From IMG/VR virus record IMGVR_UViG_3300033146_005660, positions 1-57,058 of that record: a stretch of 57,058 nucleotides of DNA. One strand, written 5' to 3'. The notes under the pieces are model-generated. The model was given only the letters and a program-made list of their open reading frames with translations, was not told the DNA's origin and made no database searches. Below, in pieces: positions 10,964 through 39,923 of this stretch. Origin of the DNA: a virus (taxonomy: Duplodnaviria > Caudoviricetes). Position 1 is the stretch's first letter, and the number at the start of each line of letters is the position of its first letter. Made by a program: the position numbers and the translations under genes.

Positions 10964-10964
10964 A

Positions 10965-11370: not shown

Positions 11371-11404
11371 GAAGAGCGTTAACCACACGCTCTTCTTTAG
11401 CTAT
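11371..11404 (+). terminator. Hairpin + TTTAGCTAT terminator motif
   Basis: GAAGAGCGT-TAACCAC-ACGCTCTTC-TTTAGCTAT. Confidence 0.7.
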
Positions 11405-13110
11405 CAGTATCTCCCTTGGGAAATCATCCCCGCCAAGCGAGAGTAGATCTGAGAGTGCATGGCGTCATCGGGCTGGTCGATGGGGTGATCGTAATACATG
11501 GTCTTCTGGCGCTCGTTGTAGTCGATGTACACGCCAAGCGTGTCCTTTGCGAACCTCGCGTACTCCTCCCATCTCGCGTACATGATCTGTTGATGCTTGA
11601 GGGCATCGATGTAGTTAGAGATCGCCATGGAACGGTTGACCTTGAAGTTGAAGGCCAGGTCGTCCCATTTGATGCGCTCGCGCATCTTCCCCACGTAGTT
11701 GAATTCCATCACGCGCTGACGACCAAGCTTATTGATCAGATGGCTATTCATCCCCCAGCCATGACCATAGTCGACGCCCAAGATTTTCACGTTGAACCGG
11801 TGGAACAGGCGAACGATGTCCTCCTTGACGAACTCCGGGTCAATCTCGGCCCCCTCATACTTTTTGATAAAAAACGGCCAGAAGAGGTCTTCATCGAGAA
11901 AAGTCCCGATCGTTAGGACCGTGAAGGATGCATGCCGCTTCTTCCCCCCGACAACCTTGCCCTCGGACCGACCCTCTCCCCAGTCGACACCGCCAAAGTT
12001 GTCACGTCCGAGGAGCTCGCGGTACGGCTCGAGAATAAGGTGCTCCGAGTCGATTCCGCTCTTCTTGTTGATAGGCCAGCAGCACTGCATGATTTCCGTC
12101 TGAGTAACAGGCTTCGATGCTTGGTCGTGGCTCTCCCCGAGGACCTCGTTATAAAAGACGGCTGGAGGCCAGTTGTCTCGCTTCCAGACAATGTCCTTTT
12201 TCCAGCGATCCCCGCCTTGCTTCCAGGGGACCATAAGCTGCGTAACATGGAATCCCGTGTACTCACCGCCCGGGTTGGTGACCACCCATCGACCTTCTTC
12301 GGGATGAATCCTGTTGCCGCACTTTCCGCAGATAAGTCCATCGTTCCCGATGTTATCGAGGCCCAGGACGTTCCAGTGGATTGGTGTGTGCATATTGCAG
12401 GGAATGGCCCACTCCATCTGGGTCGACCACTGCCAATACTCCTCGATGGTGTTGTCCAGCGTCTTGGGCGTTCCCGCGTAGAGTTCGTATGCGTACTCAG
12501 AGAAGCTCAGAGACTCCGCAATGACTTTGACGTTGTCCTTGAGTATGTCCTGTATCTCATCCAGGTAAAGCCTGTCAGCGGGGATACCACGCGCTCTGTC
12601 AGCGGACAGGAAGGCATAACGGAGGAAAATGTGCGCGGCGTTCGTGAACGTCTTCTCGTAGACCTGGTCAATGCACTTCTTGTCCGTGAAGTGGTCGTGA
12701 ACGATCGGAGAGTCATTGATAGTCGGCGTCAGCTTCTCATTGGAAAACTGGCGGGTCTGCATTGAGCTCGGGCTCACATACAAGGTCCTGAATGCCTCGT
12801 AGACAATGGACTCGGCCACCATGAGGTTGGCCAACGTGGTCGACTTGGCTACCTGCCTTCCACACTTGAGGATGGTGAGCTGCGTGCTCGAGTCATAGAC
12901 GGGGAGGAAGAACCTGTGCTGATCTAATCTTAAAGGCTTCCTACGGTGCACCAGGAGGGCCTGAGCCACGCTTGACCTTGTAGCGCTGATGATCGTCTTC
13001 TTCTTCCCCTTGTGCCTCCCAGTCCCGTGTATGACCTTCCTGCGAGCAGGAAACTTCCTCCCATCATCTTTTTTGTCAAATTCGGACTGATCTTGTAAAC
13101 TCATTTCCAT
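11404..13110 (-). CDS. terL: Terminase large subunit
   Basis: GRQVAKST Walker A, LYLDEIQD Walker B, GTPKT motif III, GVDWG and PDDAMH nuclease motifs. Confidence 0.9.
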   Translation of the reverse strand: MEMSLQDQSEFDKKDDGRKFPARRKVIHGTGRHKGKKKTIISATRSSVAQALLVHRRKPLRLDQHRFFLPVYDSSTQLTILKCGRQVAKSTTLANLMVAESIVYEAFRTLYVSPSSMQTRQFSNEKLTPTINDSPIVHDHFTDKKCIDQVYEKTFTNAAHIFLRYAFLSADRARGIPADRLYLDEIQDILKDNVKVIAESLSFSEYAYELYAGTPKTLDNTIEEYWQWSTQMEWAIPCNMHTPIHWNVLGLDNIGNDGLICGKCGNRIHPEEGRWVVTNPGGEYTGFHVTQLMVPWKQGGDRWKKDIVWKRDNWPPAVFYNEVLGESHDQASKPVTQTEIMQCCWPINKKSGIDSEHLILEPYRELLGRDNFGGVDWGEGRSEGKVVGGKKRHASFTVLTIGTFLDEDLFWPFFIKKYEGAEIDPEFVKEDIVRLFHRFNVKILGVDYGHGWGMNSHLINKLGRQRVMEFNYVGKMRERIKWDDLAFNFKVNRSMAISNYIDALKHQQIMYARWEEYARFAKDTLGVYIDYNERQKTMYYDHPIDQPDDAMHSQIYSRLAGMISQGRY

Positions 13111-13142
13111 TACTTTCCGTTTTTTTTTGTAATGTAGCTACG

Positions 13143-13239
13143 TCAAAAAATATATAAGCCTTCCAGTCTCAGATCTTTTCCACAGACACTCTCTCTCGTA
13201 GAAAACGCTCAGAAAACCAAACCTTATATATTTTTTTGA
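13143..13239. repeat. AT-rich inverted repeat in the intergenic region
   Basis: TCAAAAAATATATAAG (13143-13158) versus CTTATATATTTTTTTGA (13223-13239). Confidence 0.8.
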
Positions 13240-13367
13240 TTTTCGTTGAAATCATTGAACAACTACATATTCCGACATGTAGCATATGTGTTCCATCTTA
13301 CCTAAAAAGAGATGAAAGCAAGTGCTCACAACAGTAAAAAGTGAATACCCCCTAAAGTGGTATACTT

Positions 13368-14219
13368 TCAGTTCTCGGTGTCGGATAGTTCTTCCAATGT
13401 GGGGAACTGTGGTTCTGTAAAGTCGAACCGTAACTGCAACTCCTCATCGAGATCCATGTCCGAGTCATTGGTGAACCGAACCTTCTTCTCTCCGGCAACC
13501 ATGGCCATGGTCGCCCATCGTTGAGCCATTGGGTCCATTAGCGGGACGTCGACGAGGTTCTTGAACTTGTAGTAAGAGCTCACCATGATGTCGTTCAGGA
13601 TGGCCTCGTAGCTGATCGACGGGGTAACCCCTAACGTTTGCTCAATGAACTCCCTGGAGCCCCCCTCGCGCCCTATGAGGAGCTTGTTTCGCTCCTCCGG
13701 GGATACCCCCCTAAGAAGACCCCTCCAGTCCCGTGGGCTCATCTTCTTGAAGTTGAAGAAGTAGGCCTGCCCCCGCGTTATGACATCATGGTCGATCACC
13801 CGGCTGAATCTGGTGAGAAACGTTGACACGATGTCATCGTGGTCAAAGTCCCTCATCAGCAACAAGGACATGGCTGTCCGGTAGCGTGGGTCTGAGAAGA
13901 TATCAAACGCGTCTTGAAGCGCCTTTGAATCAGTCGTGAGGACCCTGTGGGATGTTTTTATGAACTCCGGCTGGAGCTCCCACATCTCCCTGATTCCGTG
14001 GGATTCGGTCCAGTCGATGAAAGCCTTCTTGGAAGCTATCTTGTCTGACTTGGATTTGAAGTAGGATCGAACGGCGGGGGGAAGGTTTCCGGAGAAGAGA
14101 TTCTTGGACAGAAGTTCATTCTCTGTTAGTTCCGGAAGTCCAAGGCTTTGTAGTGTCCCGTTGACATCGGCCTTTCTCGTAATGAGAAACGATATGAACA
14201 GGTCGTATGGGTAACGCAT
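13368..14219 (-). CDS. Hypothetical protein (possible terminase small subunit, by position only)
   Basis: 283-aa ORF directly upstream of terL. Confidence 0.7.
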   Translation of the reverse strand: MRYPYDLFISFLITRKADVNGTLQSLGLPELTENELLSKNLFSGNLPPAVRSYFKSKSDKIASKKAFIDWTESHGIREMWELQPEFIKTSHRVLTTDSKALQDAFDIFSDPRYRTAMSLLLMRDFDHDDIVSTFLTRFSRVIDHDVITRGQAYFFNFKKMSPRDWRGLLRGVSPEERNKLLIGREGGSREFIEQTLGVTPSISYEAILNDIMVSSYYKFKNLVDVPLMDPMAQRWATMAMVAGEKKVRFTNDSDMDLDEELQLRFDFTEPQFPTLEELSDTEN

Positions 14220-14228
14220 AGTAAGAAT

Positions 14229-14237
14229 ATTTTACCA
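14229..14237 (-). promoter_or_regulatory. Extended -10 element TGGTAAAAT
   Basis: TGn-TAAAAT ending about 10 nt upstream of ATG 14219. Confidence 0.4.
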
Positions 14238-14244
14238 TATTCTA

Positions 14245-16275: not shown

Positions 16276-16283
16276 GATGGCTC

Positions 16284-17444: not shown

Positions 17445-17462
17445 GTCTTGGGTCCTTTTTGT

Positions 17463-17471
17463 GCCATAAGA
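17463..17471 (+). promoter_or_regulatory. GCCATAAGA motif (putative phage-RNAP promoter)
   Basis: 1-mismatch copy at the start of a plus-strand island. Confidence 0.6.
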
Positions 17472-17516
17472 GAACTATTGTAGGGCGCATTTAGCGCAAA
17501 ATCTAAAGGAGAAGTC

Positions 17517-18545
17517 ATGCAAGGCATTTTAGCACCTGTGGCAGAGTTAGTCAGTGACCAGAGGGAGACGATTGAGGTCGAGGTTGAGAGCGACAGTCTC
17601 ATACCGAGCTTTACCGAGGATGCCGGAGATAGGAAGTTCTGGTTGACGTATGGGGACGACACGTATCCCGTCCTCAAAAAAGGATGGACAAGCTGGTCCT
17701 CCAAAGTCCTCAGACCCGAGTCGAGCAAGGGCAAAGAAAGAAGTCAATGGAGTGACGGGACCATTAGGAAGTTCCTGGACATGACACCCGTTGACCAGGC
17801 CAACAAAGTTGTTCGATCATGGTGGGAGGGGATGCCCCCAGAGACTTGGCATCTCATTAAGTATGTTGACAATGGATCGCGGGGAGACATCAGGTTCGTG
17901 GGAAGCAAGTCATATAAGCTATTTACGAACAAGATGTTCCTTGAGTCGCTGGATGCGGCAAACCTGTCAGACATGATTATTCGCCACAACTCAATTGGCG
18001 AAAACGGTCTCTCACTCCGCGTCACGGAAAAGAAATCCATGTTTCCAGGAAAGGTTGACAAGGATGAGCAGAACGGAAGCTATGAGATATCGATCAGACA
18101 CCTAATCTATGATCTCATCTGCACCAATGGTCTCATGATTATGTTCGGGAAGAACAACATGATTCGACAACGACACATCAACTTTGACATCAACAAGCTC
18201 TACGAGAAGATCGGTGCAGTGTCGGAGGGTTTGGCAAAGTTTCATGAGCTGTCGATGAAGATATTGGATGACATTATTCACATGGTTCCGATGTCAATCC
18301 ACGAAGTCGATGCGGTCATGAGCATGCTTGAGAAAAAGTACGGGGCGACAAAGAGTTTCGTCAATAAAATCTCAGAATCCCTCAAAGATGGACCAAAGAA
18401 TGTCTGGTCACTCATTTCCGACATCACGTACGCGGCAAGAAATCTTCCACTGGTGGATCGAATGCGGTATGAATCCAACGCTGGAAAAATCATGTTCGAC
18501 ATTGCGAAACGAACGCATCACAAGTTCTTGAAGGCGAGGGAATAA
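17517..18545 (+). CDS. DUF932-like protein
   Basis: AAGGAG RBS; LICTNGLM..RQRH motif. Confidence 0.7.
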   Translation: MQGILAPVAELVSDQRETIEVEVESDSLIPSFTEDAGDRKFWLTYGDDTYPVLKKGWTSWSSKVLRPESSKGKERSQWSDGTIRKFLDMTPVDQANKVVRSWWEGMPPETWHLIKYVDNGSRGDIRFVGSKSYKLFTNKMFLESLDAANLSDMIIRHNSIGENGLSLRVTEKKSMFPGKVDKDEQNGSYEISIRHLIYDLICTNGLMIMFGKNNMIRQRHINFDINKLYEKIGAVSEGLAKFHELSMKILDDIIHMVPMSIHEVDAVMSMLEKKYGATKSFVNKISESLKDGPKNVWSLISDITYAARNLPLVDRMRYESNAGKIMFDIAKRTHHKFLKARE

Positions 18546-18907
18546 TGTCAGACGGCGTGAACAAGGTCATTCTCCTTGGAAACCTTGGAGGTGACCCAGA
18601 GCTCCGTGAGACCAAGAGCGGAATATCTGTCTGCAACTTCAGGGTTGCCACGAACACAAGACACGGGCGAGACGACAAGAGGAGGACCCACACCGAGTGG
18701 CATAGCGTCGTCGCCTGGGGAAGAATTGCGGAAATGTGCGCCGAAGACCTCGTTTCGGGGTCCAAGGTCTATATTGATGGGCATCTCCAGACCAAGAAAT
18801 GGGAAGACAAAAGTGGGTCTGTGAGATTCAAAACAGAGGTTGTCGTGGACACGGTTGTGTTCCTTGACGATCACAGAAACTCAGAGGAGAAAGACGATGT
18901 TGAATAA
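18545..18907 (+). CDS. ssb: Single-stranded DNA-binding protein (lacks the C-terminal PF tip)
   Basis: VNKVILLGNLGGDPELR, TEWH, GSKVYIDGHLQTKKW. Confidence 0.95.
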   Translation: MSDGVNKVILLGNLGGDPELRETKSGISVCNFRVATNTRHGRDDKRRTHTEWHSVVAWGRIAEMCAEDLVSGSKVYIDGHLQTKKWEDKSGSVRFKTEVVVDTVVFLDDHRNSEEKDDVE

Positions 18908-19292
18908 GGTTCAGTTGATCGGAAATCTTGGTGCGGACCCGGAACTCAGGTCCACCGCAAGGGGAACCTCGGTGTGCAACGTCAACCTGGCGACGAGCCG
19001 CGTCTGGTACGACGACGACAAGGAGAAGCACGAGGAGACCGAGTGGCACAAGATCGTGATCTGGGGGAAACAGGCGGAGACTGTGAACCAGTACATGTCC
19101 AAGGGCTCCAAGATGTACGTTGAGGGTCGTCTGCAGACGCGCAAGTGGGAGGACAAAGAAGGAAATAACCGGTACACGACGGAGATCGTGGCGGAGCGTA
19201 CGCTGTTCTTGGATTCCAAGGGCTCCGGAGGAGGCGGTTCCAAATCCCGCGACACCCCGCCGCCCATTGGCGATGATCAACTCCCCTTCTAG
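18897..19292 (+). CDS. ssb: Single-stranded DNA-binding protein
   Basis: LNKVQLIGNLGADPELR, TEWH, GRLQTRKWEDK; ends DDQLPF. Confidence 0.95.
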   Translation: MLNKVQLIGNLGADPELRSTARGTSVCNVNLATSRVWYDDDKEKHEETEWHKIVIWGKQAETVNQYMSKGSKMYVEGRLQTRKWEDKEGNNRYTTEIVAERTLFLDSKGSGGGGSKSRDTPPPIGDDQLPF

Positions 19293-19300
19293 GTGACGCG

Positions 19301-19336
19301 GTGAGCAGGGGAGGTTGATACGCCTCCCCTGCTCAC
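19301..19336. other. Perfect 14-bp stem-loop after ssb
   Basis: GTGAGCAGGGGAGG-TTGATACG-CCTCCCCTGCTCAC; no U-tract. Confidence 0.75.
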
Positions 19337-19350
19337 TATGGAGTTTATAC

Positions 19351-19695
19351 ATGTACAGGAAAAACGATCTCAATTATACAGACAAGGTGTCTGATATACT
19401 TGGTACTGTAAAAGACACCAACATGATGGTGAGGCATAATCACATCCTCACGCCAGTGTTTGATCTTATAAAATGGACCGTAACCGGTGCCATGGGTGCT
19501 TCCGTTGTGGTGTTTTTGATCATGTCCATCGAAAGGTGCAACTTAAAGAGCGTCCAAGAATGCGCATACAAGTGCTCAAAGATATCCTCCAAGAAGGGAT
19601 CTCCATATCGCGTCATGTTGATAAACGAATCCAGGAGGGGTTGCTGGTGTAGGTCTGACAACAAGAGCGAGACCATATTGCCCGAGGAGAATTGA
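19351..19695 (+). CDS. Hypothetical membrane protein with a Cys-rich C-terminus
   Basis: GGAG RBS; one hydrophobic helix. Confidence 0.65.
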   Translation: MYRKNDLNYTDKVSDILGTVKDTNMMVRHNHILTPVFDLIKWTVTGAMGASVVVFLIMSIERCNLKSVQECAYKCSKISSKKGSPYRVMLINESRRGCWCRSDNKSETILPEEN

Positions 19696-20585
19696 TCAAG
19701 ATGGGAAGCCAATCAAAGATATCCTGGACGGACGCCACATGGAATACTGTTCGAGGTTGCTCCAAGGTTAGCAGGGGCTGCGAGAATTGCTACGCGGCGA
19801 GAATAGCCCACCGGTTCTCCGGTGAGGGCCAGCCGTACCATGGATACGTCAAGGATGAGATAGCCTGGGGAAAGCCGTATCCAACATGGAGTGGTCTGGT
19901 GTCTCCGATTGAGGACAAGCTTGAGGAGCCCCTCCGGTGGAAGCGTCCGAGAATGGTGTTCGTGAACAGCATGTCCGACACGTTTCATCCAAACGTTCCG
20001 TTCGTGTTCGTCGACAAGATAATGGACACGATCCGCCGGAGCCCCGCACACACGTTCCAGGTACTCACCAAGCGCGCGGACAGGATGCGTCACTATTTCG
20101 CGAGCAGGCCGAATATCCCGGACAACCTATGGATCGGTGTGACCGCGGAGGACAATGACACGTACGAAAGGAGAGTTCCGTTTCTCATGGAGATCGAGGC
20201 TCCCGTGAAATTCGTATCCATGGAGCCCCTCCTTGGTCTGATCGACATGGACAGATCTCAGATGAGGCCGGACTGGGTGATTGTTGGCGGTGAGTCCGGA
20301 CCGCACGCGCGTCCCATGCACCCGGACTGGGCAATAGGCGTTCTGAAGTCATGCAATCTCATGGGCATCCCTTTCTTTTTCAAGCAATGGGGCGCCTGGA
20401 AGCCAGTCGACTGGGATCCAGACAATCCGAGCCCGTCAAAGGCCAATGAGCGATATGTCAGCATTAAGGGCGGTAGCGGGTTTCACGGTTCAAGGGTTGT
20501 CAAGGTCGCAAAGTCCACTCCAAAGAAGAACGGGAACTGCTTGATTCTAGGAAAAACATACGAAGAGTTTCCAAGGGGAAAATAA
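19692..20585 (+). CDS. DUF5131 (phage Gp37/Gp68) family protein
   Basis: ISWTDATWN..GC.KVS.GCENCYA, FVNSMSD.FH, LTKR, WVIVGGESG, FFFKQWG. Confidence 0.92.
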   Translation: MIKMGSQSKISWTDATWNTVRGCSKVSRGCENCYAARIAHRFSGEGQPYHGYVKDEIAWGKPYPTWSGLVSPIEDKLEEPLRWKRPRMVFVNSMSDTFHPNVPFVFVDKIMDTIRRSPAHTFQVLTKRADRMRHYFASRPNIPDNLWIGVTAEDNDTYERRVPFLMEIEAPVKFVSMEPLLGLIDMDRSQMRPDWVIVGGESGPHARPMHPDWAIGVLKSCNLMGIPFFFKQWGAWKPVDWDPDNPSPSKANERYVSIKGGSGFHGSRVVKVAKSTPKKNGNCLILGKTYEEFPRGK

Positions 20586-20980
20586 TGGCTGCACCATCAC
20601 GAAGAAGTTTGAACAACGAAAAGGTATGCGAGAACTGCGGAAAAACCTTCTTGGCCAAGACGGCAATAACGCGGTTTTGCTACGATGACCGATGTCTCCG
20701 GGATCGAAACGCAAAACGGAAGAAGGTGTTCAAGGATGGCCTCCTTGCTCCGGCTCCGGCGAAGATGAAGATGAAGAAAAGAGATCTCAAGGAGTGGAAC
20801 AAGAACTTTCCGATTGGCACCCGTGTCATTCTAACGAAGGACACGGGAGAAGAGGTCCAGACGGTAATTCGGTCCAAGGGATGGCTGCTGGGGAATGGAA
20901 TGCCGCTTGTTCTCGTGGATGGGATTCGCGGAGGATACTCAATTTCGAGGATTAGGAAGGACAATCAGAATGCAAGTTAA
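20585..20980 (+). CDS. Hypothetical protein with an N-terminal zinc finger
   Basis: CENCGK..FC...RC. Confidence 0.7.
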   Translation: MAAPSRRSLNNEKVCENCGKTFLAKTAITRFCYDDRCLRDRNAKRKKVFKDGLLAPAPAKMKMKKRDLKEWNKNFPIGTRVILTKDTGEEVQTVIRSKGWLLGNGMPLVLVDGIRGGYSISRIRKDNQNAS

Positions 20981-21419
20981 GCTCAAGAAGGGTATCCCCC
21001 AAAAGTCCTATGGGCGAATGTCCTACAGGAAGCTCAGGGAGAGGGCATCGCAACAGCTTGCCAGCCTCTCGATGCAGCTTCGAGATCTCGTTCTCAAGGA
21101 CGGTCCCATGGAGGAAGAGGACATCGATGAGAACCTGAGAACCGGGAAGTTCCGGAACAGCATGTTCGTCCACGACGGGTTTACCGTGATGTTCACCGTG
21201 GAGAACCACGGGACAAGCGCGTACCAACACCTCTCGGTGTCCAGGAAAGAGCGGTATCCGTCATGGGACGAAATCGTGCTCTTCAGGTCGCTATTCTTCG
21301 AGGACGACGACGAGATCGTTCAGGTGATTCCAAAGGAAAGCGATTACGTGAACGTCCACGACAACTGCTTTCACATGTGGCTCGACATCTCGGGGCCACA
21401 CATGACCTGGCTGAGCTGA
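20970..21419 (+). CDS. Conserved phage hypothetical protein (DUF7694-like)
   Basis: HLSVS..RYPSWDEI..YVNVHDNCFHMW motif. Confidence 0.75.
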   Translation: MQVKLKKGIPQKSYGRMSYRKLRERASQQLASLSMQLRDLVLKDGPMEEEDIDENLRTGKFRNSMFVHDGFTVMFTVENHGTSAYQHLSVSRKERYPSWDEIVLFRSLFFEDDDEIVQVIPKESDYVNVHDNCFHMWLDISGPHMTWLS

Positions 21420-21425
21420 AAACTG

Positions 21426-21434
21426 GGCATAAGA
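21426..21434 (+). promoter_or_regulatory. GGCATAAGA motif (putative phage-RNAP promoter)
   Basis: Intergenic copy about 170 nt upstream of a TTTAGCTAT terminator. Confidence 0.6.
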
Positions 21435-21439
21435 GAAGT

Positions 21440-21605
21440 ATGTATGGGCGGTTTATCCACCACAGTGCACTTGCTAGGACTGTTGTGAATGACCGGACTA
21501 TCACCTTGGTGATGGCCGCCCTGAAGAAGAGGCAGGACCCCTCTTCGGGAACGCCATCGTCAAGGCCTACACGAGGGGGGTTATCCCCCTCTGTGTTTTA
21601 GCTAT
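21440..21605 (+). ncRNA. Candidate small structured RNA
   Basis: Lies between promoter and terminator motifs; long irregular hairpin at 21504-21565; no RBS-supported ORF. Confidence 0.45.
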
Positions 21606-22298
21606 GCGATCCCTGCCAAGGTGCATCATGGACTTGACGGACTCGTTCTTGCGCGCCAGGACGTCCATGGCCCGACCAATGCGTGTTTTCGACCCGGACA
21701 GGACGGGGTCCGCAACGTGCTGTCGGACATACTTGAGCTGCTTGATCACCGGGGCGTGCGGCCCTAAGTAGCGCGCGCCCGCGCCGATCAGACCCCCCGT
21801 TATGGCACCGGCTGCGATGGCTTTGACGGGGATATTCTTCCGACGACCCTTACCTGACTTGTATCCCTGGTATCCCCCGGCGACGGCTCCCATGTACGGC
21901 GCAGCCTTCAGGGACCCGGAGACCGCCGTGTCAGCGGCAGACAGGGCTTTGAATGGATGCGTAGCCCGGAGGACAGGAACCTTCTCCATCGTGCTACGGA
22001 CGGTCTGACCATACTTCCTGCCCACATCGTACATGTAGACGGCACTCGGGCTGATGACGGTCCCTATGGCCGTGGAGGCAACGGGTCCGATGGATTTGCC
22101 GGTCACGCCATGGCGGAATCCCGTGCTCATCATTTCGTCACCGGCGCGCGCGAGGAACTCTTTGACCTTCGGCGGGGACAGTCTCGTATTGATGAGAATG
22201 TGTCCCACGGCATTCGCCGTGAGTTTTCCGCCCAAGAACGCGAGGACGCCGGCCGTCTTTTGAAGTTCGTTGGCAAATCCGTTGAGAAAGTTGTTCAT
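21567..22298 (-). CDS. Putative internal virion protein with the shared leader
   Basis: Starts MNNFLNGFANELQKTAG; basic, with Gly/Ala-rich helices. Confidence 0.75.
   Translation of the reverse strand: MNNFLNGFANELQKTAGVLAFLGGKLTANAVGHILINTRLSPPKVKEFLARAGDEMMSTGFRHGVTGKSIGPVASTAIGTVISPSAVYMYDVGRKYGQTVRSTMEKVPVLRATHPFKALSAADTAVSGSLKAAPYMGAVAGGYQGYKSGKGRRKNIPVKAIAAGAITGGLIGAGARYLGPHAPVIKQLKYVRQHVADPVLSGSKTRIGRAMDVLARKNESVKSMMHLGRDRIAKTQRGITPLV
21573..21605 (+). terminator. Hairpin + TTTAGCTAT terminator motif
   Basis: GAGGGGG-GTTAT-CCCCCTC-TGTG-TTTTAGCTAT. Confidence 0.65.
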
Positions 22299-29200: not shown

Positions 29201-29494
29201 CCTCGGGGTGAGCTTGGGGAGCGTGGCGAGACGGACTTTTTTCTTTTCGGAGACGACCTTCCCGTTCTTGTCCTTGATCTTGAATGAACCGTAAATGGGG
29301 ATCCCCCACGTGCGGTCCCCGACCTTCACCTTCCTCTGCGCGTTGTAATCCTCGACATCAAGATTGTCGTCGGCCCAAATGCTTGCGAGCTCCAAGGTCT
29401 TGTCCCGTCCATGAACGGGAAACAGGCCCTTGATGGACTTCACGGTTGTCTCGGATAACTCTTTTGACTGCTTCTCAATATTGAAATTATCCAT
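23258..29494 (-). CDS. rpoBC: Single-chain fused beta/beta' DNA-directed RNA polymerase
   Basis: Beta motifs HTPESDKVG, GYNFEDG, GDKLVGRYGNKG, NPHG..TRMNIGQ; beta' motifs LNRAPSLH, NADFDGD, SGARG, GQSMTEPLTQMTL..HSGG. Confidence 0.95.
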   Translation of the reverse strand: MDNFNIEKQSKELSETTVKSIKGLFPVHGRDKTLELASIWADDNLDVEDYNAQRKVKVGDRTWGIPIYGSFKIKDKNGKVVSEKKKVRLATLPKLTPRFSYIIKGSEHQIANQLRLRPAGYTVKSQNGLVKGQINLAKGYSGQIGMTANQETGVFRINVGQAKQRLYPILSALGVSDSLLAKKWGQGVLEANKQMKSSEFAGSLKSFAKSVTGKSYSDGESAAKDIREFVERTKMDPKVNDRTVGGKYNKMTGQFLADLSGRLLNVMKGEEEPHDRNSLEFKEYRTIQDLVEERLSMGEFSGKIKKTIANNLNSSAREGVDEVINSTVIGPHIESVFALPELHQLPKQLNPLDMYNSSTLLTIMGPGGINDRHTITDDMRNVHPSHLGFVDPVHTPESDKVGIVYHLPVGVDSKDKTLLTRAINVRTGDLEKIDPAQFADSVVAFPGQYDARAKKWKDPKEIIALGKGNKTVTVKAKDVDYTLQSPKQVFSMATNLTPFIQNNNGGRTLIASKLAEQAVSLKHREKPLVQSRVGGNTTFEGLLGDAFAFRSPTKGVISKVTKNHIVVKDNMGTKHTINLYDNFPLNQKSFIDSIVKIKEGDIVKKGQVLADTNFTDDGVLALGKNLRTAYIPYKGYNFEDGIVITDEAAKKLTSEHMHIDSATESDRAVLNKKKFVAHYPNAYKKDQVSKLGEDGVVKKGTLLNPGDPVITKLRKDEIDPENIVFGKLARSLMRPWKDDSIKWEGDTKGRVVDVVRKGKHTKVYIRTEEPAKIGDKLVGRYGNKGIVTKIIPVDQAPHEKDGTPVDIMYNPHGIVTRMNIGQVLENAAGKVAKKTGSTYVVNNFSNENYTKTIKDLLKKNGMKGTEELLDPLSGKSLGQVAVGETYVLKLEKQAKSQFSARGAGAGWKYNQSTNEPVKGGEPGAKAVDLLMFYSMLAHGARHNLREMATHKATRNDDFWYALKTGDILPPPKPTFAYNKFISYMKAAGVDVKQSGSELTLAPMTDKEISKLSNGEIKNPQFVRAKDLAELRGGLMDKTITGGLRGTKWSHIELAEPIVNPVFEAPVRSLLGINKKTFDGITNGSMFVDEQGDINEEKGLTGGNAFLRLLTELDVEKSMRTFKTSARKSKSMTTVNNANKGIRYLEALKKLNLKPQNAYILNRVPVLPPAFRPIYALPDGNLHTSPVNFLYRDLGLVSDKLRSFNKLEYMPEDAKSDLRRDLYRGAAAVAGISSNPITYYPKKRRPRGIIEEIKGNAGAGSKTGFFQKHVLRREQDLVGRGTIIPEPKLGIDEAGIPEKMAWTIFQPFVMRELVGQGYKATDADKEIENQSFVARKALEAVMAKRPIFLNRAPSLHKFNVMAFNPKLIAGKAIKIPPLIVKGFNADFDGDTMHVHVPIMPKAVEEAKKMLPSRNLFNPGTGAIMMAPSQESSIGLYFLSKSGKRTKKSFKNAEALSTSLEKGDIDIQDMVRVAGKNTTAGRMLIDAVLPEKYRGRSGLLDKSGIKKLLTEIANDNPAEYANTVDKLTELGNEHAFARGFTVSIDDVQPVIKGRQKLLDDARRASKNMSDDKKVKLYREVDKKLKVMIAHDLGEQGNNLYKMVQSGARGDMNQLKQIVSAPLLVDDVNGNTLPIAIEGSFSTGMSLPDYWNSLYGARKGVVDKQLQTSKPGEFNKDLMATVVRSVVTQEKCNTDNGLDFDINDSNVNDRVLVQDVKSRGKVLARQGDIVTPNMVTTFRKHKVKKVKCSSPLTCGLSDGVCSSCYGLDSTGKFPELGTNIGAIAGQSMTEPLTQMTLNTMHSGGVSGSKNVTGFEKIDKLIKMPKIIAGKATLSLHDGKVTSIENAMTGGKNVFIGSTKHFVSPGNSLKVKIGSTIKKGDPISDGIIQPRELVDLKGMLPAQKYLVDEIVSAYKDTGFNILKKNVETVVQSVSNTTRVVDGGSSPYTLGDVIPYSLAESFNKKALGRVGLGEALGKTLHRSYGPVKKGTEITKRVADILKNLGHTEVHIGPEPIVHKPFMEGIKQVPLLSKDWMAQLGYGHIARAIQQGAGEGWTSDIHGYSPVPAFAYGAEFGTGEKGRY

Positions 29495-29503
29495 GATTTT
29501 CTT

Positions 29504-29512
29504 GGCATAAGA
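29504..29512 (+). promoter_or_regulatory. GGCATAAGA motif (putative phage-RNAP promoter)
   Basis: Copy 10 nt from the RNAP start codon, facing the opposite way. Confidence 0.65.
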
Positions 29513-29548
29513 GGATTGTAAGAGAACAACCTAACCATGGAGATAATC

Positions 29549-29683
29549 ATGGCCACAGGACTCGAGACCGTCTCCGACCTTGAGTCGAGAGACGATTTGT
29601 TCGACGACGACTTCGATCCCCATTGGGGGGAAGAGGACGACGAAGAACCAGAGCAAGAAACTCAAGAATCCGAGGACGATTAG
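29549..29683 (+). CDS. 44-aa highly acidic peptide
   Basis: GGAG RBS; MATGLETVSDLESRDDLFDDDFDPHWGEEDDEEPEQETQESEDD; absent from the ORF track. Confidence 0.7.
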   Translation: MATGLETVSDLESRDDLFDDDFDPHWGEEDDEEPEQETQESEDD

Positions 29684-29749
29684 TTCTCACCCCCTGGCAG
29701 GTCCTCCTTCCTGCCAGGGGGCAACTTATTTTACACTGAGAGGAGCGGT

Positions 29750-29998
29750 ATGAGAACGTTCATCGACAGACTCATCTTATTTATGAGAGAGATCGTTCTC
29801 TTCGGAATGGATGCATTCATGGTCGCGGCCTCCCGTGAAGTCGCCAGAAGATTCTGGGAACGACTGTCAGGGAGAGGCGGGGCCATCGCAGCCATTTCCG
29901 AGGAGAGTGCCTCCGAGGGGAGGAAATCCGTTGTCTACTCGACATCAACGTCGGGCGGACAGAGGGAGCTTCCCTTCCTCGATGAATACAGGGACTGA
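29750..29998 (+). CDS. Hypothetical protein, 82 aa
   Basis: GAGGAG RBS. Confidence 0.7.
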   Translation: MRTFIDRLILFMREIVLFGMDAFMVAASREVARRFWERLSGRGGAIAAISEESASEGRKSVVYSTSTSGGQRELPFLDEYRD

Positions 29999-30024
29999 TA
30001 CGAGAACCGATACAAATACTGTAG

Positions 30025-30056
30025 AGGGGGAGTTTAGAACTCCCTTTTTTAGCTAT
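30025..30056 (+). terminator. Hairpin + TTTAGCTAT terminator motif
   Basis: GGGAGTT-TAG-AACTCCC-TTTTTTAGCTAT. Confidence 0.75.
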
Positions 30057-30517
30057 CGAGACACCTGGTCGGCGATCACGTACCCGGCAAAGGACGCCGT
30101 GACAACGACGGCCACCCCCCAGGCAATGTAGCTACCCCACTTGGGTTTTGCGATCTCGAGCTGAAGACGCCGGTCGGATTCGATGAGCTGTTTGGTGAGC
30201 TGATCGAGCCTCTTGGACAGCGTGTCCTTGCTGTTCTTCTCGAGCTCCGCGGCCTCTGTCATGTGCTCAACGGATGACCTCAACAGGAACACCTTGTCCA
30301 CGAGGAGCGGGATCTTCTGGCGGAGGAGCAGGAGCTCCGAGTCCGCCTTGTACAAGAGCTTGACCTGCTCGAGATCGTATGTGCATGCCCTGTGGTCTCC
30401 GCAAAGCTCGACCTTACACTTGGGAACCGCCCTGGGTTCATACTTGGGCTCCGCGCTCACGCGGGGTGCCAGGAGCAGAAGGAGCAGGCTAAATGTCGTC
30501 CCAGCCGCTAATCGCAT
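30053..30517 (-). CDS. Signal-peptide, coiled-coil, C-terminal TM protein (possibly spanin-like)
   Basis: Likely start MRLAAGTTFSLLLLLLA; coiled coil; hydrophobic C-terminus. Confidence 0.55.
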   Translation of the reverse strand: MRLAAGTTFSLLLLLLAPRVSAEPKYEPRAVPKCKVELCGDHRACTYDLEQVKLLYKADSELLLLRQKIPLLVDKVFLLRSSVEHMTEAAELEKNSKDTLSKRLDQLTKQLIESDRRLQLEIAKPKWGSYIAWGVAVVVTASFAGYVIADQVSR

Positions 30518-30884
30518 CGATGGCCTCCTTATCCTTCTGGTGGACCTTCTCAAGCTCCTCGATTTTCCCGTCGATGACGGCAATCTTGTTCTTGGACCTC
30601 GAGACGTCGAGCTTGAGTTCCGAGACCAGTTCATCGTTTTTTTCCACCTTGGAGGTGGCCACCTTGTTGGCGATCTCCAGGGATCTCACGTTCTTTTCGT
30701 GGCGGAGCTTCGCGAGCTCCCTAGACCTCCGGCTGGAGATCCAGGCGAACACGAACATGCCAACCAGGGAGACAAGGAAGAGCACAACCCCCGTTATGGC
30801 CCCGATGTGGCTGTCCTTGCCGTTCTTCTCTTTCTTCTTCGCCGAGAAAGACTTGAGGCTCTCAAGGAGTTTGGAGGGTTCCAT
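30489..30884 (-). CDS. TM + coiled-coil protein (possibly i-spanin-like)
   Basis: One TM helix, then a coiled coil; overlaps the downstream gene. Confidence 0.55.
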   Translation of the reverse strand: MEPSKLLESLKSFSAKKKEKNGKDSHIGAITGVVLFLVSLVGMFVFAWISSRRSRELAKLRHEKNVRSLEIANKVATSKVEKNDELVSELKLDVSRSKNKIAVIDGKIEELEKVHQKDKEAIDAISGWDDI

Positions 30885-31390
30885 TAGATAGCGCCAAGAC
30901 TCGAACCGGACAGGCCGCCAATGGCAGCCCCTCTGAGAATGCGACCGATCAGAGCCTCAAGGTCGTTGTGGTCATTGTCGGACGTTCCCGCTGCGATAGA
31001 CCCGCCGGCAATTGCTCCCGTGATGGCACCAGGGGCAACAAACGTCGACAATGTGGGTCGTATCTTTGGATCGTTAAAGCTTACGAACTTTGCGGCCCCT
31101 CCCGAGATCCCCGACGCGATGGCACCGCCAATCCCGCTACCAAGAAGGGCGCCCTTGGCCGCTCCGCGAATAGGATTTTCCCCATCCTTGGCTGCTCCAA
31201 TCGTGCCACCAATGATCCCACCAATGGCTGCGCCGGGAATACCAGATTCGAGGGCAACCGCCGTGGCGTTGACAGCGTTTGGCACCCTCTCGAAGGTATT
31301 CCAGGTTTTTTCAAGGTGGTCCATTGTCTCGCCGAGAAGCCCGCTGACCTTCTCGAGCTCATCACTGAATCCGTTGAGAAAATGGTTCAT
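30884..31390 (-). CDS. Glycine-zipper protein with the shared leader
   Basis: Starts MNHFLNGFSDELEKVSG; repeated GxxxGxxxG helices. Confidence 0.75.
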   Translation of the reverse strand: MNHFLNGFSDELEKVSGLLGETMDHLEKTWNTFERVPNAVNATAVALESGIPGAAIGGIIGGTIGAAKDGENPIRGAAKGALLGSGIGGAIASGISGGAAKFVSFNDPKIRPTLSTFVAPGAITGAIAGGSIAAGTSDNDHNDLEALIGRILRGAAIGGLSGSSLGAI

Positions 31391-31917: not shown

Positions 31918-31921
31918 TGCC

Positions 31922-32533: not shown

Positions 32534-32559
32534 TGGTCTCTCTCTCTCTCGAGGGTTGT

Positions 32560-33102: not shown

Positions 33103-33109
33103 TCTCCTG

Positions 33110-33412
33110 TTATTTGTGAAAAGATCCCTCTGGCGGGTCTGTCTCTCTGTCTTCTTTGTCCCACCAGGATACCACAATGAACCACTGATCGGTCCTGACC
33201 GATGAGCCGTCCTCTTCACGCACCTCAGTGGTTTCCGTGAGGTCGTGAATGTTCTCAATCGTAATACCGCTTCCGCGCATGTTCGACTTCGTTCGAAGAC
33301 TCTCGTACTTGATTCGATCCTCGTTGTGGGAAATATTGAACTTCTTGATATGAAAAGTTCCCAGGAACACACCCGGCGTCGGAATACGCAGGGGGCTTAC
33401 TTTTGCTGCCAT
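33110..33412 (-). CDS. Hypothetical protein, 100 aa
   Basis: Fills the gap between portal and the next gene, same strand. Confidence 0.7.
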   Translation of the reverse strand: MAAKVSPLRIPTPGVFLGTFHIKKFNISHNEDRIKYESLRTKSNMRGSGITIENIHDLTETTEVREEDGSSVRTDQWFIVVSWWDKEDRETDPPEGSFHK

Positions 33413-33421
33413 CGTATTTTC

Positions 33422-35422
33422 CTAGACTGGAGAGTTTTCTCTTCGTGGTGGTAGTTTCTCAGGAAGAGGCTTCATGGCGTCAGCCGCCGCACCACCTGGT
33501 GGTGTCATCCCGATGTATTGCATGACCACGCGGTGCATGTTCGGCATTCGCGACTGGAGATCGGCCATAACGGAGGACCTCTGCTGCGGGCCCATGCCCA
33601 TGAGCTTGGTGGCCCAGCGCTTTGCGATCTTGTCCACGTCCAAGCTCACCACGTTCGCTTGCTGTGATGTCGCTTGCGCATCTTGAGGAACCTGGTCATT
33701 GGTGCTCTGAGCTGAGGCCTGTTGGGCCATTTCACGTTCCGCGCCCTGCTGCCCCTGTTGAGGTGGCTGGCCGCCCTGCTGCTCCTGGGGCTGTCCTGGT
33801 CCCTGCTGACCCTGGGGTTGACCCTGGGGTTGACCTTGTTGCTGCCCTTGCTGTTGCTGTTCCTGGGTCTGGACGCCGCTGGCGTTGAGCTGCTCTTGCA
33901 TCTGCTGCTGAGCCTTCGCCTGAGCCTCCTGCGCCTTCACCTGATACTTTGCGGAGGCAATCTGAGACTCGCCCTGGGCCTGGGCCTGCGCCTTCATCTG
34001 GAGCTCCTGAAGCTCCATCTGTTGTTCGATCTCGGAACGAATGATCTTCTGCTCCTTGTCGTGATCGAAACCGAGCTCCGTGAGCAATGTCTTTGTCGAG
34101 ATCTTTTGTGCGGCGTTGAGCTGGATGACAAGCTGCTTTCGCTGCACGTCATCCGCCATCTTGAATTCGGTGAACTTGAGGTCAATGTTCGGGATGTTGA
34201 ACTGGGTGACAATGTGCTTCTTGACGAAGTTGACGAACCGCATCAACAGCCGTCGGTACATCAGAAAATGGTTCTCAAGGGTTCGCAGGGAAATGCTCGA
34301 ACCACTCCAGCTCAGGCCACCAAACACGAACTCGATGGGAACCCCCATGCCTCCCGTGACCTCTTTGTTGGTGATCTCTATCTCCGGTCCTAGCATGAGC
34401 GCCCGACCGTCACCGCCGAGCCTCTCGAAGCCCAGGGGTACGGGAACCACGGAGATGTAGTTCGGGTCCGTCTTCCACTTGCCGATTTCCCCCTGAATCC
34501 TCTCGGACCAGGTGTGGAGGTTGACGTGTTGGTACGGGTCCTGGCTCGAGTTGCTCTGGGGGAAGATGAACTCCAGGGGCAAGATGCGCTGGAGGGCAAT
34601 GGCTTCCTGGGCACGCCTGAGGACATATAGATAAAAAAGACGCTTCATGGAGTGCAAGATCAAGGGTTTCCCCCACCCCTGGTCCTGCTCGGCGAGCGTT
34701 GGCCTCTTGAAGTGAAAGAGGTTCTTTTTGCTGAGGATGATGTCCTTGTTTTCCTTGACCGCCTTGATGAAGATCCACGGCGTATCCGCGACGATGTCAC
34801 TCTTTCCCTGCTGAATGGACCTTCGAACCTTGTTGGGGACCCTATAACGGTATTTCGATCGTCCGGTCATCGGGTGGAATTGGATGTCTATATTCTTCGG
34901 GTCCCATCGGATGAAGTTCATCTCGTTGATGTTCTTCACCGGAACATCATGGACCTTCCCCTGGACCTGCTCCTTGCAGGATGGGCATGAGTAGTTGAAT
35001 GCGTAGTTTTTGAACTTGTACTTGATGCTCTTGACATCACACTTGTGACCGCATTCCGGGCATTCGAGGATGCGCTTGAACGGCATGTTGATGGAGATGA
35101 AAGCGTTGCCGAACGTGAAAAAGTCGAGACCAATCTCTATCAAGAACGGCTTGATATCCAACGTCTCCTCAAGGATGTCTTTCCACTTGTTCCGAACGTT
35201 CTCATCCTCGTCGTTGTACACAAAGTCCGTGACCGGATACTCGGCGATCTTGTAGACAACGGAGCCAATCAACGGGTCCGTGTAAAAAAAGTATGCACAC
35301 CACTTGAGGAGTTCCTTAACGGTCGGCGGCATGTAGCTTTGTGCTACGTCAAAGAACGGGGACGGATAGATGAGCCCCCTTCTCCGGTCGTGACCGCCTT
35401 GGGGCGTTGTGGGATCTGCCAT
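33422..35422 (-). CDS. Portal protein with a zinc-ribbon insertion and Q-rich tail
   Basis: Portal-like pattern (FGNAFI, RWDPKNI, FHFKR..GWGKPLI, GMGVPIEFVFG); CPECG..CPSC insert. Confidence 0.8.
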   Translation of the reverse strand: MADPTTPQGGHDRRRGLIYPSPFFDVAQSYMPPTVKELLKWCAYFFYTDPLIGSVVYKIAEYPVTDFVYNDEDENVRNKWKDILEETLDIKPFLIEIGLDFFTFGNAFISINMPFKRILECPECGHKCDVKSIKYKFKNYAFNYSCPSCKEQVQGKVHDVPVKNINEMNFIRWDPKNIDIQFHPMTGRSKYRYRVPNKVRRSIQQGKSDIVADTPWIFIKAVKENKDIILSKKNLFHFKRPTLAEQDQGWGKPLILHSMKRLFYLYVLRRAQEAIALQRILPLEFIFPQSNSSQDPYQHVNLHTWSERIQGEIGKWKTDPNYISVVPVPLGFERLGGDGRALMLGPEIEITNKEVTGGMGVPIEFVFGGLSWSGSSISLRTLENHFLMYRRLLMRFVNFVKKHIVTQFNIPNIDLKFTEFKMADDVQRKQLVIQLNAAQKISTKTLLTELGFDHDKEQKIIRSEIEQQMELQELQMKAQAQAQGESQIASAKYQVKAQEAQAKAQQQMQEQLNASGVQTQEQQQQGQQQGQPQGQPQGQQGPGQPQEQQGGQPPQQGQQGAEREMAQQASAQSTNDQVPQDAQATSQQANVVSLDVDKIAKRWATKLMGMGPQQRSSVMADLQSRMPNMHRVVMQYIGMTPPGGAAADAMKPLPEKLPPRRENSPV

Positions 35423-35437
35423 AATGTGTTCCCGTTC

Positions 35438-36994: not shown

Positions 36995-37191
36995 TTCGGA
37001 CCTCTTCCTCTTCCGCGCGTTGGATCGAGCTCGTAGATGCGGTCTGCGTCCTTGTCGAGCTTCTTCATGGCCTCATTCAGGAGGTTATCACGCGAGTTCA
37101 GTGCGGACACGTAGATGTTCCTTGCGCAATCCAGGCAAACCGGTGGAACGCCGACAATGACGCCATCCTTACCGCAAATGCTGCACTTCAT
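36982..37191 (-). CDS. Small zinc-finger protein
   Basis: CSICG..CLDC. Confidence 0.65.
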   Translation of the reverse strand: MKCSICGKDGVIVGVPPVCLDCARNIYVSALNSRDNLLNEAMKKLDKDADRIYELDPTRGRGRGPKWVS

Positions 37192-39163: not shown

Positions 39164-39187
39164 GTTTCACCTCTTGCGGATGCGATG

Positions 39188-39217
39188 AGGGTATCAAGTT
39201 TGAACCATAAACGTCAA
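39188..39217 (-). promoter_or_regulatory. Sigma70-like promoter
   Basis: TTGACG-N18-TACCCT with TGn extension, upstream of the head operon. Confidence 0.45.
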
Positions 39218-39246
39218 GCATTTCGCGCGTTTTTACGGGTTTTTTG

Positions 39247-39255
39247 GGCATAAGA
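39247..39255 (+). promoter_or_regulatory. GGCATAAGA motif (putative phage-RNAP promoter)
   Basis: Copy at the start of a two-gene plus-strand island. Confidence 0.65.
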
Positions 39256-39313
39256 TAAGTACTGAAAAACATCAAGATATTGTAGATTTCAAACGAAAGG
39301 AGAAATAACACAA

Positions 39314-39577
39314 ATGATAAAAGCTGAGCTGAACCACCGGGAGGAGTTCAGCGAGTACATAGAAAGACTCCCGTACTTCGATGAGACTGACATGCTCGAC
39401 GAAGTGAAGAACATAGAAGAGGGCGGCCAGACGCCTCGGTCAAAAATCTGGCCCTACGTTGCCGCGGGTGCCGCCGGCTTCGTAGTGCACTGGGCGATTT
39501 CGTTCACTGCAAGACAAATTACAAGCGGAACCAAAAACGCGCTGGGAAGCGCAGCACTCCCGAGACTGGGAGTGTAA
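39314..39577 (+). CDS. Small membrane-associated protein
   Basis: AAGGAG RBS; hydrophobic segment. Confidence 0.75.
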   Translation: MIKAELNHREEFSEYIERLPYFDETDMLDEVKNIEEGGQTPRSKIWPYVAAGAAGFVVHWAISFTARQITSGTKNALGSAALPRLGV

Positions 39578-39587
39578 GGAGGAAATC

Positions 39588-39857
39588 ATGTCTAACGCCA
39601 ACGCCAACGCCAACAACGCCGCCACCGCCAACAACGCCCCCGAGAAAAAGGGGTGGCTGAAACGAAATCAGACCGCCATCATAACCGGCGCCGCGGGAGC
39701 GGCTGCCGGTTATGGGGCGAAGATGGCAGTGGATCATTTCGCCAAGGAGGCAGCTGACACTGCCGCCATGGCGATCGCCAGGGGAAACCTGGCGGTCTTC
39801 GCCGAGGGCGCCAGGGGCGCCATCGAAGCCGGAAAGGTTCCGTCGTTTAAGTTCTAG
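39588..39857 (+). CDS. Small Ala-rich protein
   Basis: AAGGAGG RBS; NANANANN N-terminus. Confidence 0.75.
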   Translation: MSNANANANNAATANNAPEKKGWLKRNQTAIITGAAGAAAGYGAKMAVDHFAKEAADTAAMAIARGNLAVFAEGARGAIEAGKVPSFKF

Positions 39858-39863
39858 ACGTTT

Positions 39864-39923
39864 CCCCCGGTTCCATCCCATTGCGGGGTGGGACCGGGGG
39901 CGTCCATGATGTCCTTTAGCTAT
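39864..39923 (+). terminator. Hairpin(s) + TTTAGCTAT terminator motif
   Basis: Long stem CCCCCGGTTCCATCCC/GGGGTGGGACCGGGGG; TTTAGCTAT at 39915-39923. Confidence 0.65.

Follow-up and report, generated by a model that had tools for sequence, protein, structure and literature searches.

What ends the plus-strand gene blocks of a phage that carries its structural genes on the opposite strand? The question is raised by a 57,058-nt sequence of a tailed phage (Duplodnaviria; Caudoviricetes), the IMG/VR record IMGVR_UViG_3300033146_005660, in which the 9-mer TTTAGCTAT stands behind GC-rich hairpins where plus-strand islands meet convergent minus-strand genes. The entire record, which is linear and by estimate ~31% complete, is called the window below, and genome-wide counts for it refer to these 57 kb. 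The plus strand is termed early and the terminase strand late, labels drawn from gene content alone. An earlier note on this DNA had proposed that hairpin and motif close every plus-strand island as a dedicated, sequence-specific stop signal for the phage RNA polymerase. With moderate confidence, we regard the motif as the 3' tail of an intrinsic-type terminator module (GC-rich hairpin, T-tract, tail), which would end early/middle units opposite the structural and polymerase genes. The anatomy of this module, its strand specificity and the position of the tail are conserved across a large clade of ~180-kb phages.

Hairpin and motif at the convergent junctions of the window

The exact motif occurs four times in the window, at 11396, 21597, 30048 and 39915, and on the plus strand only. 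The mean expected by chance was 0.06, and 0/100 dinucleotide shuffles reached four copies. A search with one mismatch found just two more sites, both unrelated; admitting a pyrimidine at position 7 adds one, TTTAGCCAT at 6918, which is the variant listed in the earlier note. Upstream of the four exact copies, hairpins of -17.4, -22.4, -15.1 and -36.0 kcal/mol were predicted (z = -4.7, -3.7, -2.2 and -4.0 versus shuffled sequences), in agreement with the GC-rich stems originally seen there. AGCTAT is preceded by 3, 4, 6 and 3 T's, respectively, so that two copies do have only three, and the 9-mer itself is 7/9 A/T.

All exact copies (4/4) lie in short gaps between a plus-strand block and the 3' end of a minus-strand gene, and the four clear convergent junctions of the window all carry one (4/4). 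The plus/minus gene ends at these junctions are 11348/11404, 21419-21601/21567, 29998/30053 and 39857/39946, and no same-strand gene lies downstream of any of the four copies. As far as anatomy goes, the proposal that plus-strand transcription units have their 3' ends at the motif was upheld at every junction.

In the first module (11371-11404, plus strand, like the other three), which closes the unit from 6947, the hairpin GAAGAGCG-loop-CGCTCTTC (11371-11395) is directly followed by TTTAGCTAT (11396-11404), and the last T of the motif is overlapped by the TGA stop of the minus-strand terminase gene. The second (21569-21605) closes the unit from 17463 and 21426; it comprises a hairpin at ~21569-21596 with the core GAGGGGG-TTAT-CCCCCTC and the motif at 21597-21605, and the minus-strand open reading frame (ORF) 21567-22298 continues across the module, with ATA GCT AAA read as I A K. 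In the third (30028-30056), closing the unit from 29504, the hairpin GGGAGTT-TAG-AACTCCC (30028-30044) is followed by six T's and AGCTAT (motif at 30048-30056), the CTA of which is the stop codon of the minus-strand gene 30053-30634. The fourth (39864-39923), closing the unit from 39247, has a 16-bp hairpin (39864-39900), a 14-nt spacer and TTTAGCTAT at 39915-39923.

The variant TTTAGCCAT (6918-6926, plus strand) has no significant hairpin upstream (z = -0.8). Its TAG is the stop codon of the plus-strand ORF ending at 6922, and it lies 20 nt upstream of a promoter-like motif at 6947. A degenerate module and a chance match are both conceivable readings of this variant. As a further feature of the first module, AGCUAGA at 11351-11357 can pair with the motif at 11396-11402, enclosing the terminator hairpin in a longer stem. 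Near position 5819 of the complete relative G001 (see below), an upstream UAGCUAU is likewise able to pair with the motif; by eye, few copies show such pairing.

Other terminators of the window had been set apart in the earlier note as classical. This distinction stood for the minus-strand terminator at 51337-51309, which has no AGCTAT-type tail, and failed for one on the plus strand. The plus-strand feature at 6421-6459 consists of a hairpin (6421-6448; -27.0 kcal/mol, z = -5.8) and TTTTTTTACTAT (6448-6459), and is thus an intrinsic-type terminator with a tail one base shorter. The terminators at 2338 and ~3255 belong to another element, which is present twice on the plus strand (2325-2378 and 3240-3296) and consists of AACCAGATTGACCGGCG, a long hairpin and a T-run. 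The stem differences between its two copies are compensatory, and their tails are CGCTGT and AATGTC, not AGCTAT; the element looks like a second terminator class or a small-RNA-like element in the left 3.6 kb.

Conservation of the tail in related phages

Terminase alignment scans supplied 64 loci from viral contigs and 58 from metagenomes; the identity was 30-53% for most of them and 70-72% for two. A complete 182-kb relative, G001, was added and every sequence was oriented by its terminase gene, which gave a total of 123 sequences (1.70 Mb). In the window, G001 and 62 viral loci linked to the gene for the large terminase subunit (TerL), 30 unique exact copies were found opposite to TerL, compared to 5 on the same strand as TerL; addition of the 58 metagenome loci brought the early-strand set to 39. 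The 48 nt upstream (45 nt plus the TTT of the motif) had a mean minimum free energy (MFE) of -17.4 kcal/mol in early copies and -8.8 kcal/mol in late copies, compared to -9.2 kcal/mol (standard deviation 4.8) at 600 random control positions. The MFE of 13/30 early copies fell below the 5th percentile of this control, and the five late-strand copies resemble background. In G001, every hairpin-linked exact copy (7/7) maps to the early strand, and no hairpin accompanies the 2 copies of the opposite strand. From copy to copy the hairpins are unrelated in sequence, so that recent duplication is not the source of the copies; only the tail is common, after a T-tract usually of 5-8 by eye.

The motif was not presupposed in a hairpin-anchored test, which accepted perfect stems of at least 6 pairs (at least 4 of them G-C) with a loop of 3-9 nt and a T-run of at least 3. 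AGCTAT was found right after the T-run in 15/336 early-strand candidates, 0/241 late-strand candidates and 0/124 candidates from unrelated viral contigs, and a degenerate tail in 23, 1 and 1 members of the same sets; since many of the hairpin candidates are certainly not terminators, these fractions are lower bounds. With stricter hairpins, A reached 0.64 at position 1 after the T-run, T 0.58 at position 4 and A 0.46 at position 5 on the early strand, and nothing comparable appeared on the late strand. The unrelated control contigs came from a scan for TTTAGCYAT-N(5-35)-GGCATAAGA, in which GGCATAAGA is the promoter-like motif described in the next section. The 69 viral-contig loci with this combination were taken as chance matches, the inspected multi-copy loci (L007, L014, L050, L053 and L070) being AT-rich, coding-like and hairpin-free.

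A stable hairpin (upstream MFE of -12 kcal/mol or lower) precedes 32/39 early copies, and by eye most relatives have 5-8 T's. The idea of a stand-alone, sequence-specific terminator therefore had to be abandoned in favour of an intrinsic-type anatomy with a conserved tail. In the 32 hairpin copies, the A of AGCTAT lies at a median of 7 nt past the last G-C pair of the stem, and at 5-10 nt in 23 of them. Bacterial-type polymerases release RNA 7-9 nt after the stem. Where the T-tract is long, the tail would therefore stand at the predicted point of release or slightly past it. In copies with three T's (11396, and the relative L160) the 9-mer itself stands in place of the U-tract.

Related tails hold the same position in other subclades: ACCTAT, ACCTAC, ATCTAT, AGTTAT, ACTTAT, AGCTAA, AGCTGT and ACCCAT, with a consensus of roughly T(3-8)-A-[G/C/T]-[C/T]-T-A-[T/C]. 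These variants are non-palindromic, and therefore it is not the TAGCTA palindrome that is conserved. The exact 9-mer is kept between phages of 40-50% terminase identity, in a clade that spans 35-69% G+C.

The palindrome matters, as TAGCTA gives TAG on both strands and the motif could be a by-product of compact convergent genes, an explanation that the earlier note itself had named among those that would refute its proposal. The CTA of the motif closes a late-strand frame of at least 50 codons in 12/39 unique copies, including several terminase genes and the window gene 30053-30634, and its TAG closes such an early-strand frame in 4/39. In the window, CTA is used once (by the same gene) and TAG perhaps once, by a doubtful 53-codon ORF. 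However, 23/39 copies use neither stop, and about one-third would be expected by chance for a stop fixed in one frame among tightly packed genes. ACCTAT, ATCTAT, AGTTAT and ACCCAT occupy the same position, and some of the non-palindromic variants have no stop on one strand. Stop codons are thus not the sole cause, and a by-product of gene packing is hardly credible; the same applies to a chance or compositional repeat, which the shuffles, the strand bias and the 0/124 control exclude.

Other identities were also considered. Both the strict orientation and the lack of a palindrome in the variants led us to reject a dimeric DNA-binding palindrome or a restriction-like site. IS200/IS605-like or integron attC-like ends were set aside: the hairpins are wholly different between copies, and no transposase or integrase was found among the 42 window proteins scanned. 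No Rfam family was hit at the gathering threshold, so the motif is not a known RNA family. In a full-text literature search on both motif strings, the matches listed were all unrelated primers and barcodes.

It is also conceivable that the motif is the site of a trans-acting phage factor, either a DNA roadblock or termination protein (stoperator-like, or poxvirus-like if the RNA sequence UUUAGCUAU is recognized) or an endoribonuclease or 3'-end binder that sets mRNA ends. The motif is asymmetric, strictly orientation-dependent and conserved in sequence rather than structure. Its distance from the hairpin can reach 12-14 nt (39915; L095), an AGCTAG or TAGCTA upstream of some copies is able to pair with it (e.g. 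11350-11404), and L095 has three tandem 19-nt repeats. The tail variants also differ by subclade (AGCTAT, ACCTAT, ACCCAT, AGCTAA), as would be expected of co-evolution with a phage protein. On the other hand, several variants occur within the single genome of G001, as would be more readily expected of a tolerant cis element than of a specific protein site, no factor emerged as a candidate, and a factor is unnecessary given the near-constant association with a hairpin and T-run. We consider a trans-acting factor doubtful as the main explanation.

Two unusual arrangements were noticed among the relatives. In G001 (136782-136851), one hairpin has a tail on both sides, AGCTAT and AGTTAT on opposite strands, and reads TTTTTTAGCTAT in one direction and TTTAGTTAT in the other, forming a bidirectional module. 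In L095 (locus coordinates 2855-2901, minus strand of the locus), the three tandem 19-nt units TTTTTAGCTATGCAGGAAG follow one hairpin terminator.

The closest cultured phages are Salmonella phage Arash (181 kb) and Vibrio phages D181, D148 and D69 (187 kb), with ~30% protein identity; a megablast search with positions 20000-31000 of the window against cultured phages gave 0 matches. In Arash, the structural genes are interrupted by opposite-strand islands, in the same mosaic as in the window. The strand counts were 30 vs 1 for the promoter-type motif GGTATAAG and 14 vs 0 for TTTTTAGC, the reversed-pattern controls of which gave 0 and 0. By eye, ~5/14 of the TTTTTAGC copies follow a hairpin and the rest are coding-like. 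The three convergent junctions examined carry the tails TTTTTAGCTGG, TTTTTAGCCAAT and TTTTTAGTCAT, and the Arash tail is more degenerate (TTTTTAGC[C/T]).

The promoter-like motif, unit boundaries and cassettes

The motif GGCATAAGA occurs four times in the window (6947, 21426, 29504 and 39247), always on the plus strand, compared to a shuffle mean of 0.40. The promoter-like copy at 6947-6955 heads the unit 7114-11348, that at 29504-29512 the two-ORF unit 29537-29998, and that at 39247-39255 the block 39314-39857, while the copy at 21426-21434 is internal to a unit. A fifth plus-strand site, GCCATAAGA (17463-17471), has one mismatch; it is located in the 73-bp divergent gap that heads the block 17517-21419, 46 nt before the start codon at 17517. 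The proposed alternation of promoter motif and terminator motif was supported along the plus strand, where the order is [6918] 6947 to 11396, 17463 (with 21426 inside) to 21597, 29504 to 30048 and 39247 to 39915. No -35 element common to the five window promoters was found upstream, and a consensus sigma70 scan finds nothing there.

In the 123 sequences, GGCATAAGA was counted 23 times on the early and 2 times on the late strand, and the more general GG[CT]ATAAG 132 and 16 times. A Shine-Dalgarno-like site with a start codon at most 60 nt away follows in 65/132 early GG[CT]ATAAG copies. In some cases tail and promoter adjoin: the gap from the tail to GG[C/T]ATAAG or GTTATAAG is 4-21 nt in L160 (two sites), L178, L125, L109 and at 6918/6947 of the window. 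At the convergent junctions, the terminator stands without an adjoining promoter.

This proximity raises the possibility that the tail is an upstream (-35-like or UP-like) element of the following GGCATAAGA promoter, or a promoter itself, with the hairpins providing only insulation. TTTAGCYAT does precede the promoter motif by 20-21 nt at 6918/6947, in L125 and in L109, and one G001 copy is followed at ~20 nt by a start codon, without any other promoter between the two. Such a role is nevertheless improbable: the four exact window copies face opposite-strand 3' ends with no downstream same-strand gene, the other four window promoters lack such an upstream element, and the spacing to the promoter motif is 4, 5, 9, 20, 21 or 27 nt. 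The variable spacing also rules out the -35 of a fixed bipartite promoter.

Several features around these promoters deserve mention. An ATG 5 nt past the promoter motif at 21426 opens the 53-codon frame 21440-21601, which runs through the terminator hairpin to the TAG of the motif and could be a leaderless small gene or nothing. The AT-rich leader from the promoter at 6947 to the first ORF (6956-7113, ~160 nt) is unusually long and contains AATCAATACAAATC at 6992 and 7002. In the unit 29504-30056 (region 29537-29721), the first ORF encodes a very acidic peptide of ~48 aa (MEIIMATGLETVSDLESRDDLFDDDFDPHWGEEDDEEPEQETQESEDD), and between it and an 82-aa ORF lies a 12-bp GC hairpin without a proper T-run (29690-29721), which could be an internal attenuator or a processing site. 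The sequence [C/T]TACAAT occurs 6 times on the minus (late) strand of the window (17477, 29515, 39279, 40621, 44711 and 53298) and 0 times on the plus strand. At 17477, 29515 and 39279, it lies in the three divergent intergenic regions just upstream of minus-strand operons, 3-23 nt from the plus promoter motif. It is a candidate -10 element of late/structural promoters.

The unit boundaries were also compared between close relatives. Among all pairs with at least 88% identity, 4 indels of at least 150 bp were found, two being single-gene cassettes bounded by motifs and two located elsewhere. L178 has a 1339-bp segment that is absent from L181 (98% identical) and is made up of the promoter-like GTTATAAGT, a single ORF, a hairpin and TTTTTTTTAGCTAT; the alignment blocks share 15 nt, corresponding to the T-run and AGCTAT at both cassette ends. 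The 480-bp segment that distinguishes L083 from L171 is bounded by GCGGGCATAAGAA repeats; the promoter GGGCATAAGAA is followed in it by a single ORF and by hairpins carrying the tail TTTCTTACCCAT. Furthermore, the plus-strand block converging on the terminase gene has no detectable similarity between the window and L160 (70% identical), though the next 9 kb are syntenic. Short motifs recurring at every unit boundary may act as microhomology for the gain and loss of single-gene cassettes.

A precedent is provided by PeSL elements, described as composite stem-loop terminator/early-promoter elements of T4-type phages that flank accessory genes among core genes (PMC2839356, PMC4122927). By analogy, tail and promoter motif might be mainly linkers of mobile PeSL-like cassettes, homogenised by recombination, with the tail adding little to termination. 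The two cassettes with their repeats (15 nt of T-run and AGCTAT, and GCGGGCATAAGAA), the frequent 4-21 nt spacing of tail and promoter and the wholly different block opposite the L160 terminase agree with this, yet we think it unlikely that the linker role is primary. Homogenisation within single genomes cannot explain an exact 9-mer kept at 40-50% terminase identity and very different G+C, 2/4 indels are not at motifs, the repeat is just 13-15 nt long, and the fixed position beside the predicted release point fits a transcriptional role. The two roles are compatible, and the alternatives concern only which of them is primary.

A probable tailed terminator, its candidate polymerase and related systems

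If the motif is the tail of a terminator module, early/middle units would begin at G[G/C]CATAAGA promoters and end at a hairpin, a T-tract and A-[G/C]-[C/T]-T-A-[T/C], here AGCTAT. The tail would act in cis, at the point of release or slightly past it, and strengthen pausing or release. In the copies with three T's, its U/A-rich sequence may stand in for part of the U-tract (UUUAGCUAU is 7/9 A/U). At the convergent junctions, the module would keep early transcription from running antisense into the late genes. On the whole, the tail looks like a clade-specific addition to ordinary transcription terminators.

The enzyme that reads these signals was considered as well. A single polymerase was found, and this candidate reader belongs to the multisubunit beta/beta' type: a fused protein of 2078 aa encoded on the late/structural strand of the window (23258-29494, minus), with Pfam Rpb2 domains 3 and 6 followed by Rpb1 domains 1-5. 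The polymerase is one polypeptide in the window and apparently also in the Vibrio phages, with a homing endonuclease breaking up the match in D181 and D148; Arash (L148) has two separate genes for it (gp206 and gp216), which lie 5 kb apart. According to the published description, Arash virions contain RNA polymerase beta and beta' subunits and a sigma factor, as detected by mass spectrometry (PMC10585845). By analogy with this virion enzyme, and given conservation of the motif across 35-69% G+C, it is plausible that the reader is the phage's own bacterial-type polymerase and not only the host enzyme. Among the matches listed in a literature search, which included work on phages AR9, phiKZ and P23-45 and their multisubunit polymerases, no such motif was mentioned.

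More tentatively, early transcription in this widespread, mostly uncultured clade, with a bacterial-type polymerase that would be delivered by the virion, may have its own punctuation: a start at the -10-only GG[C/T]ATAAG and a stop at T-tract plus AGCTAT, read by a phage enzyme or factor rather than by the host, with sequence-dependent termination resembling the poxvirus early signal and with the same marks serving as joints of cassette exchange.

A number of observations weigh against a terminator tail read by a phage enzyme. Termination at the motif sites is presumed from their anatomy alone. The tail is neither necessary nor sufficient: in G001, as read from the listing, ~7 of ~18 intergenic early-strand hairpins are followed by AGCT and ~11 of ~18 strong early-strand hairpin-and-T terminators have no tail, and a few copies (6918; 7/39) have no hairpin. 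The earlier proposal of a sequence-specific terminator for the phage polymerase is in all partly supported. The distance from hairpin to motif ranges from 3 to 14 nt. Both convergent and tandem arrangements are present in G001, where the tail showed no preference for convergent junctions, and in some of its tandem cases the ribosome-binding site of the next gene follows within ~20 nt of the motif with no visible promoter, so termination there would have to be leaky or regulated. Most early-strand hairpin-and-T terminators of Arash are likewise without the tail, and an AGGAG ribosome-binding site often follows the T-run. In Vibrio phage D181, the strand counts point in the same direction but weakly (12 vs 3 for TTTTAGCY, with controls of 4 and 3; 10 vs 2 for GGYATAAG, with controls of 8 and 6). 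Finally, no sigma factor was detected with Pfam Sigma70_r2 in the window (~31% of the genome), G001 or G004, nor by tblastn with Arash gp196, and the link between motif and phage polymerase is therefore one of analogy.

The remaining gene content of the window gives the setting of these units. The minus strand encodes the terminase large subunit (11404-13110), a portal-like protein (33422-35422) and further large ORFs. The plus-strand blocks encode an SSB, an ATPase/polynucleotide-kinase-like protein, a MYG1-like exonuclease, a DUF5131 protein, a weak HNH match and small ORFs; ARAGORN predicted 0 tRNAs. A perfect 41-nt direct repeat lies at 3430-3510 on the plus strand (copies from 3430 and 3470), upstream of a 625-aa ORF at 3676, and each copy contains the inverted repeat CCCGCGCCGA...TCGGCGCGGG.

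If the tail matters for termination, it would be a rare sequence-specific addition to hairpin terminators that is tied to a single class of genes in a single phage lineage. Tail and promoter motif would then jointly allow the early units of uncultured phages to be read from sequence and accessory cassettes to be recognised. The tail would also be a testable handle on how bacterial-type RNA polymerases of phages differ from host enzymes, and Arash is in culture. If the tail is irrelevant to termination, the finding reduces to ordinary intrinsic terminators and a PeSL-type recombination linker.

Several known systems invite comparison. With PeSL elements, the likeness lies in short repeated modules of stem-loop terminator and early promoter, with breakpoints inside the modules in 2/4 indels between close relatives. 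The phage group, however, is unrelated. The promoter here is a single -10-like GG[C/T]ATAAG without a -35, in contrast to the sigma70-like -35/-10 of PeSLs, a conserved element follows the stem-loop, and only 2/4 indels support shuffling.

In the temperate mycobacteriophages of cluster A, stoperators serve as binding sites for the repressor and have no connection with hairpin-and-T terminators. They too are asymmetric short intergenic sites with one orientation relative to transcription; the sites described here differ in their association with a hairpin and T-run, and no repressor or lysogeny module is evident.

Two sequence-specific termination signals of viral polymerases are the class II signal of T7 RNA polymerase and the poxvirus early signal TTTTTNT, both of which are hairpin-independent. 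The T7 enzyme is single-subunit, while poxviruses package a multisubunit polymerase in the virion, and their signal acts in RNA via a termination factor, 20-50 nt upstream of the RNA end. What these signals share with the tail is a short, oriented, T-rich sequence ending the early units of a virus with its own polymerase. In the present case 32/39 copies have a hairpin, which places them outside the hairpin-independent class, and the polymerase, unlike that of T7, is multisubunit.

With respect to terminators proper, Telesnitsky and Chamberlin reportedly found in 1989 that the sequence just past the release site modulates the efficiency of T3/T7 early terminators for the Escherichia coli polymerase. 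To our knowledge, no conserved downstream motif of this kind has been described on terminators. The modules resemble intrinsic terminators in having a GC-rich stem-loop at the putative 3' ends of units, followed by 3-6 T's in the window and by eye mostly 5-8 in relatives, with the tail at its median of 7 nt past the stem; they differ in the conserved 6-nt element that follows the T-tract, or partly replaces it where only three T's are present, in one gene class of one clade.

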